A stretch of 64,000 nucleotides of DNA from Minisyncoccota bacterium (GTDB lineage: Bacteria > Patescibacteriota > Minisyncoccia > UBA6257 > 02-FULL-45-10c), in assembly GCA_028716745.1 (NCBI GenBank), contig JAQUPE010000001.1:30203-94202 (forward strand), written 5' to 3'. A program made the position numbers and the translations under genes. Positions within the stretch are counted from its first letter, which is position 1. The number at the start of each line of letters is the position of its first letter. Shown one piece after another: positions 12,482 to 53,520 of this stretch. The notes below the pieces were generated by a model. The model was not told the origin of the DNA and did no database searches. It was given only the letters and a program-made list of their open reading frames with translations.

Positions 12482-12934
12482 ATGAACAATAAAAAAGGAT
12501 TTTCTACATTAGAAGTAATTGTGTTGGCAGTCATTATTTTGGCTATAGGCGGGGGAGTTTATTATTGGCAAAACCAAAAAAATAATTCAGCAACCGAGCC
12601 ATTGGCTGGAGAGAATAAGAATATTTATACAAAGTGTTTTAAGCAAATATTTTCTGATAACAGCATTATTTCTGCTAAATTTACCTTTGCCGAGAATTCC
12701 GTTGAGGGTCCATTGTCTTATTTATGGGCGCAAAAAGATAATAGCATAGGTATTTTTAAGGGAATGTTGAAAGAGGGTCTTATTGTTGGGGATTATACTT
12801 TTATGTCTGAGGGTCAGGAATCTTTGGGAAAATCAGCTTTTCGTTATGATGGTAAGTCATTGATCCAGGGGTTCGGTCCTAACTTAGACGAGTTTAGCGG
12901 GGCAGTTACTTTAAATGAGGTGCCTTGCGAGTAA
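12482..12934 (+). CDS. type IV pilin-like / pseudopilin protein
   Basis: N-terminus MNNKKGFSTLEVIVLAVIILAIGG matches the prepilin cleavage/methylation motif (G|FSTLE + hydrophobic helix). Confidence 0.6.
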   Translation: MNNKKGFSTLEVIVLAVIILAIGGGVYYWQNQKNNSATEPLAGENKNIYTKCFKQIFSDNSIISAKFTFAENSVEGPLSYLWAQKDNSIGIFKGMLKEGLIVGDYTFMSEGQESLGKSAFRYDGKSLIQGFGPNLDEFSGAVTLNEVPCE

Positions 12935-12960
12935 TAATTTTCTTGGATTAATAATCAAAT

Positions 12961-13296
12961 ATGGCAGTTATTTTAACCGACGAAAATTTTGAAAAAGAAA
13001 TATCCAGCGCCGACAAACCGGCACTGGTTGATTTTTTTGCGCCATGGTGCGAGCCATGCAATATGCTTGCGCCGATACTAGAAAAGGTGGCTAAGGATTT
13101 GGAGGGGAAATTTATTTTTATGAAAGCTAATTTAGACGACGTTCCTTTGGCGGCTCAAAAGTTCGGAGTAGAGGTAATTCCAACAGTCATTTTATTTAGA
13201 GATAATAGGCCCATCAGCGGTTTTACCGGGTTGGCGCCGGAAGATGCCATTAAGGAATGGCTTGAAAAAATGATAAAAGAAAAAATAGTAATATAA
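12961..13296 (+). CDS. trxA: thioredoxin with atypical CEPC active site
   Basis: FFAPWCEPCNMLAPILEKVA thioredoxin-fold signature; 111 aa. Confidence 0.8.
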   Translation: MAVILTDENFEKEISSADKPALVDFFAPWCEPCNMLAPILEKVAKDLEGKFIFMKANLDDVPLAAQKFGVEVIPTVILFRDNRPISGFTGLAPEDAIKEWLEKMIKEKIVI

Positions 13297-13302
13297 ATAA
13301 TT

Positions 13303-13572
13303 ATGGAGGAAAATAATAAAGAAAAATTAATAAAAGAATACGTTGAATATGCTAAAAGCAACGGCATCCAATTAAATCCCGACGCAAGAGTTGTCGAGGG
13401 GATAGTCGGCGGTTTATTAAAGAACGAAGAAAAATATGGAAAAAGGTATTGTCCGTGCAGGAGAGTTTCCGGAAACCAAGAGGAGGATTTAAAGAAGATT
13501 TGTCCCTGCTATTATCACAAGGGCGAAATTGAAAAAGACGGACGCTGTTTTTGCGGATTATTTGTAAAGTAA
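13303..13572 (+). CDS. ferredoxin-thioredoxin reductase catalytic-subunit-like protein
   Basis: CPC-x14-CPC-x12-CFC spacing resembles the FTR catalytic chain CPC..CPC..CHC cluster; 89 aa; immediately downstream of thioredoxin. Confidence 0.5.
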   Translation: MEENNKEKLIKEYVEYAKSNGIQLNPDARVVEGIVGGLLKNEEKYGKRYCPCRRVSGNQEEDLKKICPCYYHKGEIEKDGRCFCGLFVK

Positions 13573-13578
13573 TTTTAA

Positions 13579-14040
13579 ATGGCATTAAAAGTTCCTTTCT
13601 ATAAACAAAGCGCTAATTATACATGCGGTCCCACCTGCCTACAGATGGTTTTTAAGTTTAACGGAATATTTAAAAGCGAGAAAAAGTTAGCCAAAGAGGC
13701 TCATACGCGCTCTCGGCATGGAACATATCGTCGGCATATGGCAGAAGCAGCGCGTAAAAATGGATTTTTTTGTTTTATTAAAAGCGGTTCTTCTCTTAAA
13801 GATATTGAAAAATTTATAAGGCTAAAATTTCCTATAATAGTTTATTTTATTGAACCCGCAGATAATATTGAGCATTATGCCGTAATTATAGGGTTGGATA
13901 AAAATAAAATTATTATGAACGATCCCTGGAACGGAAAGGGATTTAAAATGAATAAAATGGAATTTTTATCAAGATGGAAAAGCGAAAATGGCAGAATAAA
14001 TAAATGGATGATGGTTGCCTCAAAAACCGGATTTAATTGA
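13579..14040 (+). CDS. peptidase C39-like (papain-fold) domain protein
   Basis: YKQSANYTCGPTCLQMVF resembles the C39 Q..CGxxCLxM catalytic region; downstream His (EHYAVII) and Asp/Asn (NDPWNG). Confidence 0.5.
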   Translation: MALKVPFYKQSANYTCGPTCLQMVFKFNGIFKSEKKLAKEAHTRSRHGTYRRHMAEAARKNGFFCFIKSGSSLKDIEKFIRLKFPIIVYFIEPADNIEHYAVIIGLDKNKIIMNDPWNGKGFKMNKMEFLSRWKSENGRINKWMMVASKTGFN

Positions 14041-14070
14041 AAAATAACGCCATTTGTTTTATAATATATC

Positions 14071-14143
14071 CGCGGGATGGAGCAGTAGTTAGCTCGTCTG
14101 GCTCATAACCAGAAGGTCGTTGGTGCAATTCCAACTCCCGCAA
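14071..14143 (+). tRNA. initiator tRNA-fMet (CAT)
   Basis: cgcggga...gctcataacc...tcccgcaa; C1:A72 mismatch and three G-C pairs in the anticodon stem typical of the bacterial initiator; closely resembles the E. coli tRNA-fMet sequence. Confidence 0.85.
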
Positions 14144-14299
14144 CCGCGAAAAATGCGCTAAAGCGCATCTCGCGGCAGGCCATCAGAAATGGACTGACGC
14201 GGAATAAGCCCCCACAATTGTGGGGGGTTTATTTTATGCGAGCCCCGCGATAAAATCCTCAGATTTTATTTTGCGGGGCAAGTAATTTATAATTTAGTA

Positions 14300-14563
14300 A
14301 TGCATTATGTATATTTGTTAGAAAATATTGAAAATAAAAATTGGTATATAGGATTCACAGAAAACATTAAGAGAAGACTATTTGAGCATAATAATGGAAG
14401 GGGCGGACGGACAACAAGAATTGGTAAATCATGGAAAATGATATATTGCGAGGTTTATTTGAATAAAGAAGATGCTGTGGGTAGAGAGAAATTTTTAAAG
14501 GGTGGATCTGGAAGAAAATATTTAAAAAAGCAGTTGACTCATTATTTAAAAAATATAGAATAG
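14300..14563 (+). CDS. GIY-YIG nuclease domain protein
   Basis: YVYLLEN...WYIGFTENIKRRLFEHN = GIY-YIG motif; 87 aa. Confidence 0.7.
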   Translation: MHYVYLLENIENKNWYIGFTENIKRRLFEHNNGRGGRTTRIGKSWKMIYCEVYLNKEDAVGREKFLKGGSGRKYLKKQLTHYLKNIE

Positions 14564-14645
14564 TTTGACTTTTTATGTAAAATGTTTTAATATAAATATA
14601 ATTTGTAAGTTGACAGCATAATACAATCAAGTAAGGGGAGGGCGG

Positions 14646-15200
14646 ATGTTAAAGGGAGTAAAGAAGGTTTCAAAGGAGTACCATTCTCGGATCGGAAGCG
14701 AAATAGAAAAAAGGAGGGGTTCGGAATTTACCTATGAGGACATTACCAAGGCAACGGGGCTAGGCGTTAATACGGTTTGCTGCTGCCTTTCGCAATTCCT
14801 CAGGAAGGGGTTTCTCAACCGCGTTGGCCGTATAACCAGGAAGCCGAGAAATCTCAGGCTTTCCATATTTCGGCAAAGAAAACCTTTGCTGAAAATCGCT
14901 CCCGCAGGAAACGTCGCCGAAGAAGTCTGGCAGATATTCCAGGGCGTTCTGGAAAAAGAAGGCAGCCACTCATACATTTCCGCAAAGGAAATATGGGAAA
15001 GGACAAATGGCTGCAACAGAAAGAGCGTTCGGGGAGTGGTGTCCAGATTGTACTTATTAGGGTACCTCGAGAGATGGAAATCAAAATATTGCCTGAAGGC
15101 GCAGTATAGAGGCATGTCTAGACCTCTCGTGGTCAGCAAGCCCAAATACATCACCGTCCCGCTGGTGCAGCCGCAATACGCAGCCGCGGTCTCCCAGTAG
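14646..15200 (+). CDS. high-G+C hypothetical protein with two winged-helix-like segments (KYCLK motif)
   Basis: Strong SD ggggagggcggATG; ...RLYLLGYLERWKSKYCLK shared with the next gene. Confidence 0.45.
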   Translation: MLKGVKKVSKEYHSRIGSEIEKRRGSEFTYEDITKATGLGVNTVCCCLSQFLRKGFLNRVGRITRKPRNLRLSIFRQRKPLLKIAPAGNVAEEVWQIFQGVLEKEGSHSYISAKEIWERTNGCNRKSVRGVVSRLYLLGYLERWKSKYCLKAQYRGMSRPLVVSKPKYITVPLVQPQYAAAVSQ

Positions 15201-15227
15201 TTTCAGAGTTTTTTAAAAGTTTCACTC

Positions 15228-15260
15228 CCGCGTCACAAGCGCGGGATTTTTTTGTTTTAA
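15228..15260 (+). terminator. rho-independent terminator
   Basis: cccgcgtcacaagcgcggga + T-run. Confidence 0.55.
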
Positions 15261-15398
15261 AAAAGTTATTAACATATTGATTTATTTCAGCGTTAACGTA
15301 TATTTTTCTAGTGAAGTTATGAAAAATTTATTTTTGCAATAACTTAATAATAAATTAGTTTTTTTAAAGATTATTTTGGATGGAAAAGGAGGCGGTGA

Positions 15399-15788
15399 AT
15401 GCAAAGCGACTGTGTCGAAGGTTCTAAATCCCTCAAAGGGGGATATGTTCCTTTGAGGGAAGGGCTGGATTTCAAAGGCAGCGCTGTGGGAGTTGTCCGG
15501 ATGATTTTTCAGGAAATCGACAGGCCTCTTTTTGAAGAGGATATTCTCTGCTATGCCGAGATTTTTTCAAAAAAGAAATTCGGTGCGGCAAGAATAAAAA
15601 CTGCAATTTCCTGCCTGAATCAACAGGGCGCTTTTGAAAGAATCGGAAATAAATATTGTTTGAAAAGCGAATTTTCAAACAAAAAAGTTTCCGAAACAGC
15701 AGGAAAGAAGACAAAGGAAGTTGTCGTGGAGGCGACAGAGTTGGCCAGCGTTGGTTTGGCGTTAACCAGCGCCCCCGTGACGGCCTGA
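15399..15788 (+). CDS. high-G+C hypothetical winged-helix-like protein, paralog of 14646..15200
   Basis: SD aaaaggaggcggtgaATG; ...QQGAFERIGNKYCLK shared motif. Confidence 0.45.
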   Translation: MQSDCVEGSKSLKGGYVPLREGLDFKGSAVGVVRMIFQEIDRPLFEEDILCYAEIFSKKKFGAARIKTAISCLNQQGAFERIGNKYCLKSEFSNKKVSETAGKKTKEVVVEATELASVGLALTSAPVTA

Positions 15789-15950
15789 ATTAATACTCGA
15801 TTTGGTATCCTCGTTGCACAGCAGCGCGAGGATATTTTTTTACCTAAATATTGCCTGTACATTATAAGTTACTATTAACATATGCTATACAAGTTAAAAA
15901 CGCGTTTAATTTGTCAAAACCCGCTTAATTCATTATTATTTTAAATAAGA

Positions 15951-16023
15951 GCCGGCGTAGCTCAGTGGTTAGAGCGAGCGCTTCATAAGCGTTAGGTCGG
16001 TAGTTCAATTCTACCCGCCGGCA
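15951..16023 (+). tRNA. tRNA-Met (CAT), elongator type (could be tRNA-Ile lysidine)
   Basis: gccggcg..gctcagtggttagagc..agcgc-ttCATaa-gcgtt..ggtag-ttcaatt-ctacc-cgccggc-a. Confidence 0.8.
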
Positions 16024-16072
16024 CAGATAACTTTTTGTAAAAGACCCACAAATCTCTTATACTTTTAATATT

Positions 16073-16741
16073 GTGATAAAGAGCCATCCGATTAGATTTA
16101 TAATCATATTTTTGATATTGGCGGCAGCCGCCTTTGTTTTATTTGATAAGAAAAACACAACGGTTTATTCAATTCCATTTTTATCAATGGAAGAGAAGAA
16201 TAGCATGGCGGGAACGCTGGATAAGGTTAGAGAGGCCGGAGGAGAGGGGGTCGATGTTGTTTCCGAAAAAGCTACTCAGGCTAAAGATGCGGTAATAAAT
16301 AAGGGCAATGAAGTTGTTTCTGGCGCTGTGAAGGCAGTTAAAAAACAGGCTTTTGATTTATTTAAAAAAACAGTAAATGAAGAAATAGATAACTTAGGCA
16401 AGGATTTGAAAGTGGAGTCCAGGGCTCCTTCTTCAATAGATAATACGGCTAGCATTATAAATGTAGCGGGCGGGAGCGATTCAGTAGAAACTCATCCGGA
16501 GGTGATTTTTTCAATACAGCCTAATTCTTTGGCTTATTTTACGATTAAAAATATTGAAGAAGAAAATATAAAATTTGAAATTAATTGGCAGGATGGCGAA
16601 TCTAAGAACGGGACGATAAATAAGGGAGATACCATGATTTTATCCCATGGATGGAGCAAAAGCGGCAATTATTTGGTAGAATTCAAGATAATCACAACAA
16701 AAGAAACGAAGGGATATAATATCCCGGTAACAATATTTTAA
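16073..16741 (+). CDS. hypothetical membrane-anchored protein (GTG start)
   Basis: ORF with N-terminal transmembrane helix. Confidence 0.4.
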   Translation: MIKSHPIRFIIIFLILAAAAFVLFDKKNTTVYSIPFLSMEEKNSMAGTLDKVREAGGEGVDVVSEKATQAKDAVINKGNEVVSGAVKAVKKQAFDLFKKTVNEEIDNLGKDLKVESRAPSSIDNTASIINVAGGSDSVETHPEVIFSIQPNSLAYFTIKNIEEENIKFEINWQDGESKNGTINKGDTMILSHGWSKSGNYLVEFKIITTKETKGYNIPVTIF

Positions 16742-16743
16742 AT

Positions 16744-17766
16744 ATGGGAACAAAGGTTCAAGAAATAAAAAATAAGTTTTTAAAAGCAATTGAGGGGATT
16801 AAAGACGCAAAGTCCCTGGAGGATCTTCGTATTCAATATCTTGGACGAAAGGGGGAGATAACTAATTTATTAAAGCATTTGAAGGATATGTCTTTAGAAG
16901 AAAGACGGCATGCTGGTCCGATGATTCAGCGTTTAAAAATAGAAACCGAAGAATTGCTTAATAAAAAATTATCGGATTTGGCAAAAAGCAGAGGAGATAT
17001 TTCGGAAATAGACATTACAATTCCGGGAAAGAAAATAACAGTTGGGCATTACCATCCTTTATCTATAGTGGAGAAAGATATTCGCAGGATTTTTAAGGCG
17101 ATGAATTTTTCAATTGTTGATGGCCCGGAGATTGAAACTGAATATTATAATTTTGACGCTTTGAATATTCCCAAGAGTCATCCTGCGCGTGATATGTGGG
17201 ATACTTTTTGGCTTAAGCAGTCCGTCCCGGATCCAAGATTATTATTAAGGACGCACACTTCGCCGGTGCAGATACGTTATATGGAAACGCATGAACCGCC
17301 GTTTCAGATAATCGTTCCTGGAAAAACTTTTAGGTTTGAAGCGACAGATGCTTCTCACGAAATAGTTTTTCATCAGGTGGAGGGATTAATGGTTGGTAAA
17401 GATGTCAGTTTGGCAAATTTTAAATTTGTTATTCAGGAATTTTTTAAGAGGCTTTTCGGAAAAAATTTAGAGGTCAGATTCAGGCCGAGTTATTTTCCGT
17501 TTGTTGAGCCTGGATTAGAGGTGGATTTACAGTGCGTAAAATGCGGAGGGAAGGGATGCAATATTTGCGGAAACAGCGGCTGGCTGGAAATCATGGGCGC
17601 CGGGATGGTTCATCCTAAGGTGTTTGAGGCCGCCCACTATAATCCGCGCGAATGGCAGGGATTTGCCTTTGGTTTTGGTCTGGAAAGGATAGCTATGATT
17701 AAATACAATATTCCGGATATAAGACTGTTTAATTCCGGAGATTTGAGGTTTATTAACCAATTTTAA
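16744..17766 (+). CDS. pheS: phenylalanine--tRNA ligase alpha subunit
   Basis: Class II aaRS motifs; FRPSYFPFVEPGLEVD; 340 aa. Confidence 0.93.
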   Translation: MGTKVQEIKNKFLKAIEGIKDAKSLEDLRIQYLGRKGEITNLLKHLKDMSLEERRHAGPMIQRLKIETEELLNKKLSDLAKSRGDISEIDITIPGKKITVGHYHPLSIVEKDIRRIFKAMNFSIVDGPEIETEYYNFDALNIPKSHPARDMWDTFWLKQSVPDPRLLLRTHTSPVQIRYMETHEPPFQIIVPGKTFRFEATDASHEIVFHQVEGLMVGKDVSLANFKFVIQEFFKRLFGKNLEVRFRPSYFPFVEPGLEVDLQCVKCGGKGCNICGNSGWLEIMGAGMVHPKVFEAAHYNPREWQGFAFGFGLERIAMIKYNIPDIRLFNSGDLRFINQF

Positions 17767-17769
17767 ATT

Positions 17770-18138
17770 ATGGAAAATTATAAAGTAGAAAAAGAAAAAT
17801 CTTTATTAGAAAGAACAAGAGAAGAATTTGTGGAAAAGATTAAGGCCGAAAAAGAAAAAGGAGAAGACAGGGGAAATCTTGATTTGTTGGGTATTAATCC
17901 CGACAGCATTACTGAAGAAGATGCCAAGCTTTGGAATAGGCTTAAAAATGTATCTACCTTGGAAGAAGGAATGAAAATTAAAAATGAATTAATGAGGGCT
18001 CAGTTTGAGGCTGTGTCTAAGTCTGCTAATTTGACATCGCCATTTTGGGCTTATTTTGCGAATCAAGTAACGGGCATAGTTCAAAAGATGGAGCTTGATG
18101 AGTTGTATGGGCCAGAAGAAAAGAAGCAGCCAAAATAA
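17770..18138 (+). CDS. hypothetical charged protein between pheS and pheT
   Basis: 122-aa ORF tightly packed between pheS and pheT. Confidence 0.4.
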   Translation: MENYKVEKEKSLLERTREEFVEKIKAEKEKGEDRGNLDLLGINPDSITEEDAKLWNRLKNVSTLEEGMKIKNELMRAQFEAVSKSANLTSPFWAYFANQVTGIVQKMELDELYGPEEKKQPK

Positions 18139-30083: not shown

Positions 30084-30203
30084 CAACGAGGTCACAGGTT
30101 TCCTGCCCGGCCGTAGCCCCGTAACGCGGGGCGAAGGAGGGGATCCCTGTATTGTCCACAGAAAATCGCTTTAATTGTGGGTTTTTGGTAGAATTATTAA
30201 AAC

Positions 30204-38418: not shown

Positions 38419-39522
38419 ATGAAGGGACCAGTTGGATTTGTAGGTTGGAGAGGGATGGTCGGATCGGTGCTGATGCAGAGGATGCTGGAAGAGAACGACT
38501 TCGTCGACATACCTGAGAGGCATTTTTTCAGTACTTCTCAGGTAGGCCAGAAGGGGCCGGACATTGCGGAAGGCCGGAAGCTGGAAGATGCCAACAGCGT
38601 AGAGGCGCTGAAGAAGTGCGAAATCATCGTTACTTGCCAGGGCGGGGACTGGACGAAAGAAATGTACCCGAAGATCCGGGCAGACGGCTGGAAGGGTATC
38701 TGGATTGACGCGGCCTCAACGCTGCGCATGGATCCGGAGAGCGTCATAGTTCTTGACCCGATTAACGGAGACCTGATTAAAAAGGCGATTAGCGACGGAT
38801 GCAAAACATTCGTCGGCGGCAATTGCACTGTCAGCTTGATGCTGATGGCGTGCCACGGCCTTTTTAAGAACAATCTGGTCGAGTGGGTGAGCTCTATGAC
38901 CTACCAGGCAGCTTCGGGCGCCGGCGCCAAGCATATGCAGGAACTGATTCGCCAGATGAAATTCATCGGCGAAAAGGTTGACCCTGCCACGACCGCGCTC
39001 GAGCTCGACAGGATAGTGACGGAAAGGATGGACCGCGCCGATTTTCCGAAGGAAAATTTCGGCGCTCCTTTAGCCGGCAGCTTGATTCCCTGGATTGATA
39101 TCGAGTGGGGCAGCGGCCGGACGAAGGAAGAGTGGAAGGGATACGCCGAGGCCAACAAGATTCTGGGAACCAAAACTCCTATTCCGATCGACGGACTTTG
39201 CGTTCGGGTGGGAGCCATGCGGTGCCACAGCCAGGCGTTGCTAATAAAGCTGACCCGCGACGTACCTCTGGATAAGCTGAAGTTCATGATCGGCAGAGAA
39301 GCGAACGAGTGGGCGAAGTATGTTTTCAACGACAAAAAGGAAACACTCGCGTCTCTCACTCCCGCTGCGGTATCCGGAACTCTGGACGTTGCCATCGGCC
39401 GTTTACATAAGGCTATGTATGGCCCGGAATATCTCCTTGCTTTTACGGTAGGCGATCAGCTCCTCTGGGGAGCAGCCGAACCGGTGAGAAGGACTCTGCA
39501 GATTTTCTTAGGAAATCTGTAA
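38419..39522 (+). CDS. asd: aspartate-semialdehyde dehydrogenase, E. coli/proteobacterial type (high G+C)
   Basis: High end-to-end similarity to E. coli Asd (VGFVGWRGMVGSVLMQRM..., IIVTCQGGD, TFVGGNCTVSLMLM, YQAASGAGA, GSLIPWID, GLCVRVGAMRCHSQ, AFTVGDQLLWGAAEP). Confidence 0.92.
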   Translation: MKGPVGFVGWRGMVGSVLMQRMLEENDFVDIPERHFFSTSQVGQKGPDIAEGRKLEDANSVEALKKCEIIVTCQGGDWTKEMYPKIRADGWKGIWIDAASTLRMDPESVIVLDPINGDLIKKAISDGCKTFVGGNCTVSLMLMACHGLFKNNLVEWVSSMTYQAASGAGAKHMQELIRQMKFIGEKVDPATTALELDRIVTERMDRADFPKENFGAPLAGSLIPWIDIEWGSGRTKEEWKGYAEANKILGTKTPIPIDGLCVRVGAMRCHSQALLIKLTRDVPLDKLKFMIGREANEWAKYVFNDKKETLASLTPAAVSGTLDVAIGRLHKAMYGPEYLLAFTVGDQLLWGAAEPVRRTLQIFLGNL

Positions 39523-53082: not shown

Positions 53083-53520
53083 TTACTCCTTCGGCTGGTC
53101 TATGACCATCAGCGCTCGGCAGGGGACCTCGTCGGGATTAGAAATCTTTTCTCTGGCTTCTTTCATCCAGTAGTCCAGATGTTCCCGGCTGACATATTTT
53201 GCTATGAGTTTCAGATCATCCCTTGTCGGTTTTTGTTCCAGGATCTTGTTCGCTATGCCGGCTATAAGCAGTTGGCTGTACTGCAGGATGTAGCTATAGA
53301 CGCTCATGAGTTTAGAACTGAGCGAATATTCTTTCATCCTTTTTTCGATTATAGCCATGGCATATTTGAGTCTTACGAGAAGAATCTTGAGGGACCTGTT
53401 GTTGTGGTCCTTTTTCCAGAACTCGTCCCAGAACTCGATGAGCTCCATTTCTACATTGTCGAGGAGTTCGACTTCTGATTTTCTCAGGAGTTCTTCCTCA
53501 AACTCATCCTTTTTGCTCAT
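53083..53520 (-). CDS. high-G+C hypothetical acidic/helical protein
   Basis: ORF with SD aagggggtgaaaaacctATG; upstream promoter TTGACA-N17-TATTAT (minus strand, ~53571-53600). Confidence 0.45.
   Translation of the reverse strand: MSKKDEFEEELLRKSEVELLDNVEMELIEFWDEFWKKDHNNRSLKILLVRLKYAMAIIEKRMKEYSLSSKLMSVYSYILQYSQLLIAGIANKILEQKPTRDDLKLIAKYVSREHLDYWMKEAREKISNPDEVPCRALMVIDQPKE

Follow-up and report, generated by a model that had tools for sequence, protein, structure and literature searches.

A hairpin leader and GIY-YIG gene behind tRNA-fMet in a Minisyncoccota genome: probably a small selfish nuclease cassette

We analysed the interval between two CAT-anticodon tRNA genes in a 64,000-nucleotide stretch of the Minisyncoccota bacterium contig JAQUPE010000001.1 (hereafter the window; G+C 39.5%). 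Directly 3' of the initiator tRNA-fMet gene lies a cassette of approximately 420 nt, consisting of four hairpins (14144-14279) and a gene for an 87-amino-acid (aa) GIY-YIG protein. It is followed by two winged helix-turn-helix (wHTH) genes, the open reading frames (ORFs) ORF1 and ORF2, and by the second tRNA. The GIY-YIG gene and its hairpins are probably a small selfish nuclease cassette, found behind tRNA genes in many ultra-small bacteria. With rather more confidence than doubt, we regard the interval as a composite of three independent layers, i.e. the tRNA pair, the GIY-YIG cassette and the wHTH gene pair. The original prediction had read it as a degraded integrative element or a homing-endonuclease-associated insertion. 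The window was compared with 80 Parcubacteria loci anchored on PheS (1.22 Mb; loci are labelled in the manner of L001, e.g. L006) and with 9 independent further loci fetched via close homologues of the GIY-YIG protein.

The hairpin leader and the GIY-YIG gene

The cassette is made up of the following features.

14140..14179, minus strand: hairpin H1, which begins at the tRNA trailer (CCGCG...CGCGG); inverted copy of the cassette motif, with the motif read on the minus strand
14176..14196, plus strand: hairpin H2, the leader linker, CAGGCCATCAGAAATGGACTG, taken from the fold; a near-identical segment occurs in the L102 leader, and CAGGCCA in L085
14198..14240, plus strand: hairpin H3, ccccacaattgtgggg, which holds an intrinsic terminator-like stem (14209-14226) followed by a T-run
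14239..14282, plus strand: hairpin H4, ccccgc...gcgggg, a plus-strand copy of the motif 21 nt 5' of the GIY-YIG start
14300..14563, plus strand: stand-alone GIY-YIG nuclease gene (Slx1-like/UPF0213), 87 aa, G+C 0.288, no obvious Shine-Dalgarno (SD) sequence

The segment 14144-14300 folds into these four hairpins with a minimum free energy of -69.7 kcal/mol (z = -7.6), a stability reached in 0/200 shuffles. H3 and H4 are the nested palindromes originally pointed out, and both are indeed present, each occurring only once in the window. H1 and H4 were found to be inverted copies of one motif, GCC-N-CG-N-GA...TT-N'-CG-N'-GGC. Over 20 instances of this motif the 9-bp stem is paired at 98.9%, as compared to at most 62% for slid controls, and 27 compensatory double-sided changes were counted versus 7.2 in shuffles (27 was reached in 0/500). 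A G.T pair is invariant in all 20 instances when these are read in motif orientation. The covariation supports a short palindromic unit of the kind seen in repetitive extragenic palindromes (REPs), miniature inverted-repeat transposable elements (MITEs) or Rickettsia palindromic elements (RPEs).

Scored with a covariance model of the motif (CM R1), H4 reaches 48.5 bits (E = 5.5e-9) and H1 26.1 bits (E = 0.004), both copies themselves being part of the training alignment; H1 also matches the motif as a regular expression. Over 1.26 Mb, strong matches of CM R1 are confined to GIY-YIG loci and are the training instances themselves. The informative outcome is that the 80 PheS-anchored loci contain no match, and that one new motif pair was recovered, in L092. 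An Rfam scan of 13900-16200 (at gathering thresholds, then at E up to 10) returned only the two tRNAs and sub-threshold noise. The hairpins therefore belong to no known RNA family, and no known structured RNA is hidden in the higher-G+C ORFs. Across cassettes, the first hairpin begins at the CCA or trailer of the tRNA and the last lies 10-51 nt 5' of the ATG, while an equivalent of the H3 terminator hairpin was found in the leaders of L085 and L101. We also considered H4 as a mimic of the adjacent tRNA acceptor stem, which fits L092 but fails in L086 and L094.

The stand-alone GIY-YIG gene of the original prediction is confirmed by a match to PF01541 (E = 3e-17, 63 bits against a cut-off of 22.6) that covers 76 of 78 profile positions. 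The motif residues are visible in the protein (YVY...YIG, RR and the E in GREKF), from which nuclease activity is predicted. The nearest solved structures by sequence are the UPF0213 proteins 1zg2 (E = 9e-9) and 1ywl (E = 5e-7), followed by SLX1 chains. The suggested homing-endonuclease type does not hold: TIGR01453 gives 21.6 bits against a cut-off of 56, at positions 3-37 only, and the ORF ends right behind the catalytic domain, with no auxiliary domain and no C-terminal DNA-binding module. By sequence, the protein is assigned to the stand-alone Slx1-like/UPF0213 branch and not to the homing endonucleases of the I-TevI/Seg type. A minimal stand-alone Slx1-like form has been described by Dunin-Horkawicz et al. 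2006 (PMC1564403). The G+C of the window gene is unusually low compared with the genome. E. coli YhbQ is another stand-alone Slx1-like/UPF0213 protein; such proteins are widespread in bacteria and are not known to have an established function.

Recurrence of the cassette behind tRNA genes

A homologue search with the GIY-YIG protein returned more than 300 sequences at E < 1e-8 across Patescibacteria, with identities of 58-73% among the best 120 listed. In eight of the nine loci fetched via such homologues, a tRNA or tRNA-like 3' end, the leader and the GIY-YIG ORF follow one another on one strand; the ninth contig begins inside the leader. The structured leader is 86-260 nt long in these nine loci, and the tRNAs that precede cassettes are of four kinds, Gln(UUG), Gln(CUG), fMet and Met. 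All 6 GIY-YIG ORFs present in the 1.22 Mb of PheS-anchored loci sit 0-155 nt from a tRNA. We found no published description of a tRNA-linked Slx1-like GIY-YIG cassette in the literature searched, a search that was not exhaustive.

In L092 the cassette occupies the same tRNA-fMet/tRNA-Met slot as in the window and is the sole cargo there. Identity between the two loci is 69% for the GIY-YIG protein, 59% for PheS and 27% for the flanking P222 protein. The closest relative, L006, has a PheS 78% identical to that of the window and is collinear with it; the order common to both is thioredoxin (Trx), ferredoxin-thioredoxin reductase beta (FTR-beta), tRNA-fMet, ORF1, ORF2, tRNA-Met, P222 and PheS. 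L006 lacks the GIY-YIG gene, most of the hairpin block and a C39 peptidase gene, and DNA identity runs 16 nt past tRNA-fMet before it breaks. The GIY-YIG gene thus shows presence/absence polymorphism at a single locus, being in the same slot of the window and L092 and absent from L006.

Two loci contain additional copies of the hairpins. At L092:4100-4196, a leader-only hairpin-pair module in reverse orientation forms a 90-nt in-frame insertion in pheS, which lengthens PheS by 30 aa between its CxxC pairs. The layout of this module is nearly identical to that of the tRNA-Gln/GIY-YIG leader of L096, down to the CAG that precedes CCACG. It is the one solo module found away from an enzyme gene, and its occurrence alone and in frame within pheS suggests mobility. 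At L100:1736-2330, the H4 unit is present three times in tandem 5' of the GIY-YIG ORF, and the segment of H1 plus linker is repeated 3' of it with the loop inverted (ACTTCT vs AGAAGT).

From this distribution we infer that the cassette is mobile. The notion of a nuclease-associated insertion is hence retained for the GIY-YIG part of the interval, which is absent from L006 and recurs behind other tRNAs, while it does not apply to the wHTH genes. A mechanism can be offered as speculation. The minimal, structure-specific nuclease may act on hairpin or cruciform DNA formed by the H1/H4 motifs, and recombinational repair could then establish copies of the module at new sites, either alone or together with the gene. 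The 3' ends of tRNA genes would serve as tolerated, safe landing sites, and transcripts that start at the tRNA promoter and read through the leader terminator might serve to express the GIY-YIG gene. A broader proposal, which we put forward tentatively and hold to be somewhat short of probable, is that the hairpin leader and Slx1-like GIY-YIG gene represent a class of selfish element in Patescibacteria that has not been described before and that docks on tRNA 3' ends. In such a class, the nuclease would mobilise a palindromic module that also spreads alone, even in frame into essential genes.

The main rival of the proposed mechanism is an ordinary host gene for repair or tRNA/RNA metabolism, co-transcribed with the tRNA, with the hairpins acting as a cis-regulatory or processing leader RNA and the adjacency reflecting shared expression. 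The constant placement of the gene downstream of the tRNA on the same strand is compatible with this, but the cassette follows different tRNAs (fMet, Met and two Gln isoacceptors), and close relatives differ in whether they have the gene. Similarly, the distance of H4 from the start codon (10-51 nt), the invariant G.U-compatible pair (20/20 instances) and the missing SD in most gene copies would befit a leader RNA, whereas the motif copy in H1 lies on the other strand, which is needless for an RNA element on a single transcript. Neither the tandem amplification and flanking copies in L100 nor the reverse-oriented, leader-only copy within the pheS coding sequence agree with a host gene, in favour of which stands a described fusion of an Slx1-like domain to a tRNA methyltransferase (Dunin-Horkawicz et al. 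2006, PMC1564403). We consider this explanation unlikely.

A number of points nevertheless weigh against a selfish cassette. The motif instances were picked by position and by eye, such that the pairing percentage is partly ascertained, and H1-like trailers (CCACG...) are also found behind a few tRNAs that have no GIY-YIG gene. The invariant G.T would suit an RNA G.U pair in H4, which argues for an RNA role of at least this hairpin. A truncated H1 (the 5' part only) is kept in L006; therefore, the two genomes may differ because L006 lost the cassette by deletion, and not because the window gained it by insertion. Furthermore, the case for movement of the cassette is built on its distribution.

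Several related arrangements were observed. In L098 (1809-1884), a leader and GIY-YIG cassette lies behind an aberrant tRNA-fMet-like sequence that is missed by ARAGORN and scores 36.5 bits, below threshold, with Rfam. A second, divergent small GIY-YIG gene is located immediately 5' of the tRNA in L096 (1595-1837), and another lies 130 nt 5' of the first GIY-YIG gene in the P0104 JGI contig; two GIY-YIG genes can therefore flank one tRNA. A distant subfamily of small GIY-YIG proteins (33-40% identity) is encoded at L012:2150-2560(-), L014:12700-13445(+) and L041:9430-9890(-). Here each ORF has a tRNA (tRNA-fMet or tRNA-Phe) behind it and, in front of it, a partial copy of the 5' portion of that tRNA. 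For L012 and L014 the partial copy runs into the T-loop (GGTTCRAAT), stopping 1-4 nt short of the ATG, and has its anticodon arm swapped for a different perfect hairpin; in L041 it stops after an anticodon-loop-like CTCATAC. L014 contains two identical tandem units of this subfamily.

The tRNA pair, its spacer and the winged-helix genes

ARAGORN and Rfam agree that two CAT tRNAs bound the interval, as originally stated.

14037..14065, plus strand: promoter-like site of tRNA-fMet, TTGAAA-17-TATAAT, 11/12 matches; top promoter match within the first 20 kb, as a consensus match only
14071..14145, plus strand: initiator tRNA-fMet, CAT anticodon, C1/A72 mismatch (ARAGORN; Rfam 61.8 bits)
15911..15939, plus strand: promoter-like site of the second tRNA, TTGTCA-17-TATTAT, with the same hexamers in L006
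15951..16024, plus strand: second tRNA, CAT anticodon, G1:C72 (ARAGORN; Rfam 71.3 bits), elongator Met or Ile2(k2C)

Across Parcubacteria, pheS is preceded by a conserved tRNA-fMet/tRNA-Met(CAU) pair: 36/80 PheS-anchored loci have a second CAU tRNA close to an initiator-like one, and the tRNA-fMet of the window is 95% identical to that of L006. The original prediction had asked whether tRNA-fMet is directly followed by tRNA-Met in related genomes, and the answer is mixed. The spacer is 6-223 nt long and free of ORFs of at least 60 aa in 20 of the 36 loci, while in the other 16 it measures 505-2953 nt and holds 1-4 ORFs. The cargo is unrelated between loci and includes superoxide dismutase (SOD), a GLUG/TSP3 surface protein, 23S rRNA intervening-sequence proteins (IVPs), HTH proteins, a Mur ligase and unknowns; no integrase was detected among the spacer cargo proteins tested in the PheS-anchored loci. 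Given such varied and unrelated cargo in 16 loci, the spacer is a recurrent cargo slot and a site of repeated gene gain and loss.

Further observations concern the tRNA flanks. In L057 (7430-7945) and L069 (7577-8083) the tRNA-fMet/tRNA-Met spacer contains a gene for a 23S rRNA intervening-sequence protein (PF05635), bracketed by inverted CTCATCAACT-type repeats; the tRNA trailer in both is CCACGAAAAG, the same as in the GIY-YIG cassettes of L085 and L096. A C39-like cysteine peptidase gene (window 13579-14040) lies just 5' of tRNA-fMet and is absent from the collinear L006 locus, and C39 and NlpC/P60 genes occupy the same position in L005 and L100. Elsewhere in the window, the tRNA-Val trailer (30085-30160) is G+C-rich and visibly self-complementary (…GGCCGTAGCCCCGTAACGCGGGGCGAAGGAGGGG…), unlike other tRNA trailers; it has no Rfam match at the gathering threshold.

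The remainder of the window spacer is occupied by the two wHTH genes and their signals.

14646..15200, plus strand: ORF1, tandem winged-helix protein, 184 aa, wHTH units at residues 10-77 and 87-150, GGAGG-type SD
15226..15246, plus strand: intrinsic terminator of ORF1, followed by a T-run, with an equivalent hairpin in L006
15261..15288, plus strand: conserved non-coding block AAAAAGTTATTAACATATTGATTTATTT, with the -35 hexamer TTGATT and 20 nt upstream of it; candidate operator/promoter of ORF2
15399..15788, plus strand: ORF2, single winged-helix protein, 129 aa, paralogue of the ORF1 C-terminal domain, GGAGG-type SD
15806..15841, plus strand: terminator-like hairpin after ORF2, TATCCTCG...CGAGGATA plus T-run (hairpin proper 15806-15834), read by eye, the 13-nt loop being too long for the scanner

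The GGAGG SD sequences and a terminator for each gene, both claimed originally, are present; the SD sequences and the ORF2 hairpin were read from the sequence, and the ORF1 terminator was found by the scanner. The shared wHTH-like segment is also upheld: BLASTP aligns only 27 aa of ORF1 and ORF2 (E = 2e-4), but in a profile-profile comparison (hhalign) 67 columns of the ORF1 C-domain family align to the ORF2 family with a probability of 95.8% (E = 6.5e-9). An AlphaFold2 model of ORF1 from a 4-sequence alignment consists of two canonical winged-helix units (predicted local distance difference test score, pLDDT, 78), with the topology H1-b1-H2-H3-b2-b3 (H, helix; b, strand) and structural matches to wHTH proteins; the single-sequence model is poor (pLDDT 54). 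The family signature is KG-x-V-x-x-VW ... G-x-x-ER-x-x-x-KY-x-LK. No curated threshold of Pfam or NCBIfam is reached by the wHTH proteins, MarR, TrmB, BlaI/MecI and HTH_36 included. The best named-family scores are 13.9 bits for HTH_36 (cut-off 25; window protein) and E = 1e-3 for TrmB (one family member), and ORF1 weakly matches the phage wHTH family phrog_6336 (E = 9e-7).

An exhaustive search with ORF1 over 1.84 billion representatives found 3 relatives only, giving a family of 4 clusters, and a word-indexed search of 5.8 billion proteins returned self-matches only for both ORFs. Searches of IMG/VR, JGI metagenomes and INPHARED phages detected no relatives of either protein. Of the ORF1 relatives, the two distant ones lie in unrelated contexts, with neither a tRNA nor an ORF2-like neighbour. 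Within L006, the ORF1 orthologue is 46% identical, with proportions of non-synonymous and synonymous differences (pN and pS) of 0.35 and 0.84, and the ORF2 orthologue (L006:8763-9155) is 45% identical overall and 58% in the core (pN 0.37, pS 0.65). Only pN and pS are given for the two genes, as the synonymous distance (dS) of ORF1 is saturated. Despite near-saturated synonymous sites, the non-coding block at the ORF2 promoter is identical to L006 at 27/28 nt, and it is unique in the window; it may represent an operator.

The claim of markedly higher G+C holds for ORF1 (G+C 0.494; third-position G+C, GC3, 0.595; z = 1.9 and 2.3 versus 66 window ORFs), whereas the elevation is only mild for ORF2 (0.451, z = 1.1). 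Five further window ORFs are as G+C-rich, namely the accessory ORFs at 38419-39522, 44892-45533, 45625-46158, 53083-53520 and 62193-62606 (G+C 0.45-0.54). One of these is an aspartate-semialdehyde dehydrogenase (asd), one has a weak, sub-threshold DUF218 match, and the rest have no Pfam match. High GC3 as a sign of high expression is unsupported, given that the other G+C-rich window ORFs are asd, the weak-DUF218 protein and hypotheticals.

We read ORF1 and ORF2 as vertically inherited and as a layer separate from the GIY-YIG cassette. Judged from their modelled fold, they are most likely fast-evolving, lineage-specific DNA-binding regulators. Two points count on the other side: the raised G+C is kept in the window and in L006 (L006 orthologues 0.488 and 0.451, compared with 0.408 for the L006 locus), a feature that simple vertical descent fails to account for, and the proteins match Pfam below threshold only. 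Conserved genes with host-like codon usage across the lineage had been named as the finding that would speak against imported DNA; the outcome is split, as the genes are indeed conserved in the lineage, yet so is their raised G+C.

Alternatively, ORF1 and ORF2 could have been carried into the spacer by a small site-specific mobile unit in two independent events, one in the window genome and one in L006. The raised G+C and GC3 in both genomes despite near-saturated synonymous sites would be in keeping with this, as would a slot that accepts many different cargos and a family so sparse that its 4 clusters include two distant members in unrelated contexts. However, the two genomes share gene order, spacing, terminator and the 28-nt intergenic block, the protein divergence equals that of the neighbouring host gene P222 (44% aa identity), and there are no repeats, recombinase or copies elsewhere, making independent entry improbable.

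Least likely, and already largely refuted, is a single integrative element or island that inserted at a tRNA gene, brought nuclease and wHTH genes together and then decayed: the bounding tRNAs, the spacer hypervariable between lineages, the G+C of ORF1/ORF2 above and of the GIY-YIG gene below that of the genome and the weak phage wHTH match of ORF1 are outweighed by the absence of any integrase or recombinase among the ORFs of 12500-18000, of meaningful direct repeats in 13500-16700 and of att-like repeats of the tRNA 3' ends there (7-nt seed), by an L006 locus that keeps ORF1 and ORF2 without the GIY-YIG gene (the block as a whole is hence not missing from close relatives), by cassettes elsewhere that never accompany ORF1 or ORF2, by wHTH proteins with no relatives in the viral, metagenome and phage collections searched, and by a divergence from L006 (45-46% aa identity) that matches P222.

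Comparison with known systems

Islands formed by tyrosine integrases at tRNA genes resemble the window interval in placing variable, compositionally deviant DNA beside tRNA genes. The interval differs in lacking an integrase as well as an att duplication of the tRNA 3' end, and in measuring only 0.4-1.8 kb. In annotation, cassettes can pass for remnants of integrative islands, and their hairpins for terminators. As compared to winged-helix regulators (MecI/BlaI, TrmB, MarR, Rrf2, the Crp C-domain) and to the tandem winged helices of the SelB C-terminus and TFE, ORF1 and ORF2 have no sensor or dimerisation domain, carry their own signature, reach no family threshold and belong to only 4 clusters. 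They constitute a small, near-orphan regulator family of modest interest alone.

The UPF0213 proteins (B. halodurans BH0048, PDB 1zg2; E. faecalis EF2693, PDB 1ywl) are, like the window protein, a minimal GIY-YIG domain of about 90 aa alone, but we came across no account that links members to tRNA 3' ends or to a conserved hairpin leader. T4 SegB is a free-standing GIY-YIG homing endonuclease in a phage tRNA cluster that promotes inheritance and amplification of the tRNA region (PMC2330249, PMC13096335). As with the window cassette, its gene lies among tRNA genes and is present or absent between relatives, and the amplification it drives recalls the tandem units of L014 and L100. In contrast, Seg and I-TevI proteins have a C-terminal DNA-binding domain and belong to the UvrC/homing-endonuclease branch, while the 87-aa window protein groups with Slx1 and has no phage context.

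REPs, and the bacterial interspersed mosaic elements (BIMEs) they form, are short imperfect palindromes arranged as inverted pairs beside a small gene for a REP-associated tyrosine transposase (RAYT), and RPEs are inserted in frame in genes. The cassette shares with REP/BIME-RAYT systems the inverted imperfect palindromes beside a small nuclease or transposase gene, and the pheS module of L092 is, like an RPE, a non-autonomous copy in frame in an essential gene. The cassette differs from all of these in that its enzyme is a GIY-YIG nuclease rather than a Y1 transposase, and in docking at tRNA 3' ends. If true, the selfish-element reading would give the enigmatic UPF0213/YhbQ-type GIY-YIG proteins their first concrete role. 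The fixed tRNA 3'-end partner, the covarying inverted hairpins and the solo pheS module together lead to a testable hypothesis, that of a nuclease acting on its own hairpins, which would resemble REP/RAYT or homing systems in otherwise highly reduced genomes.

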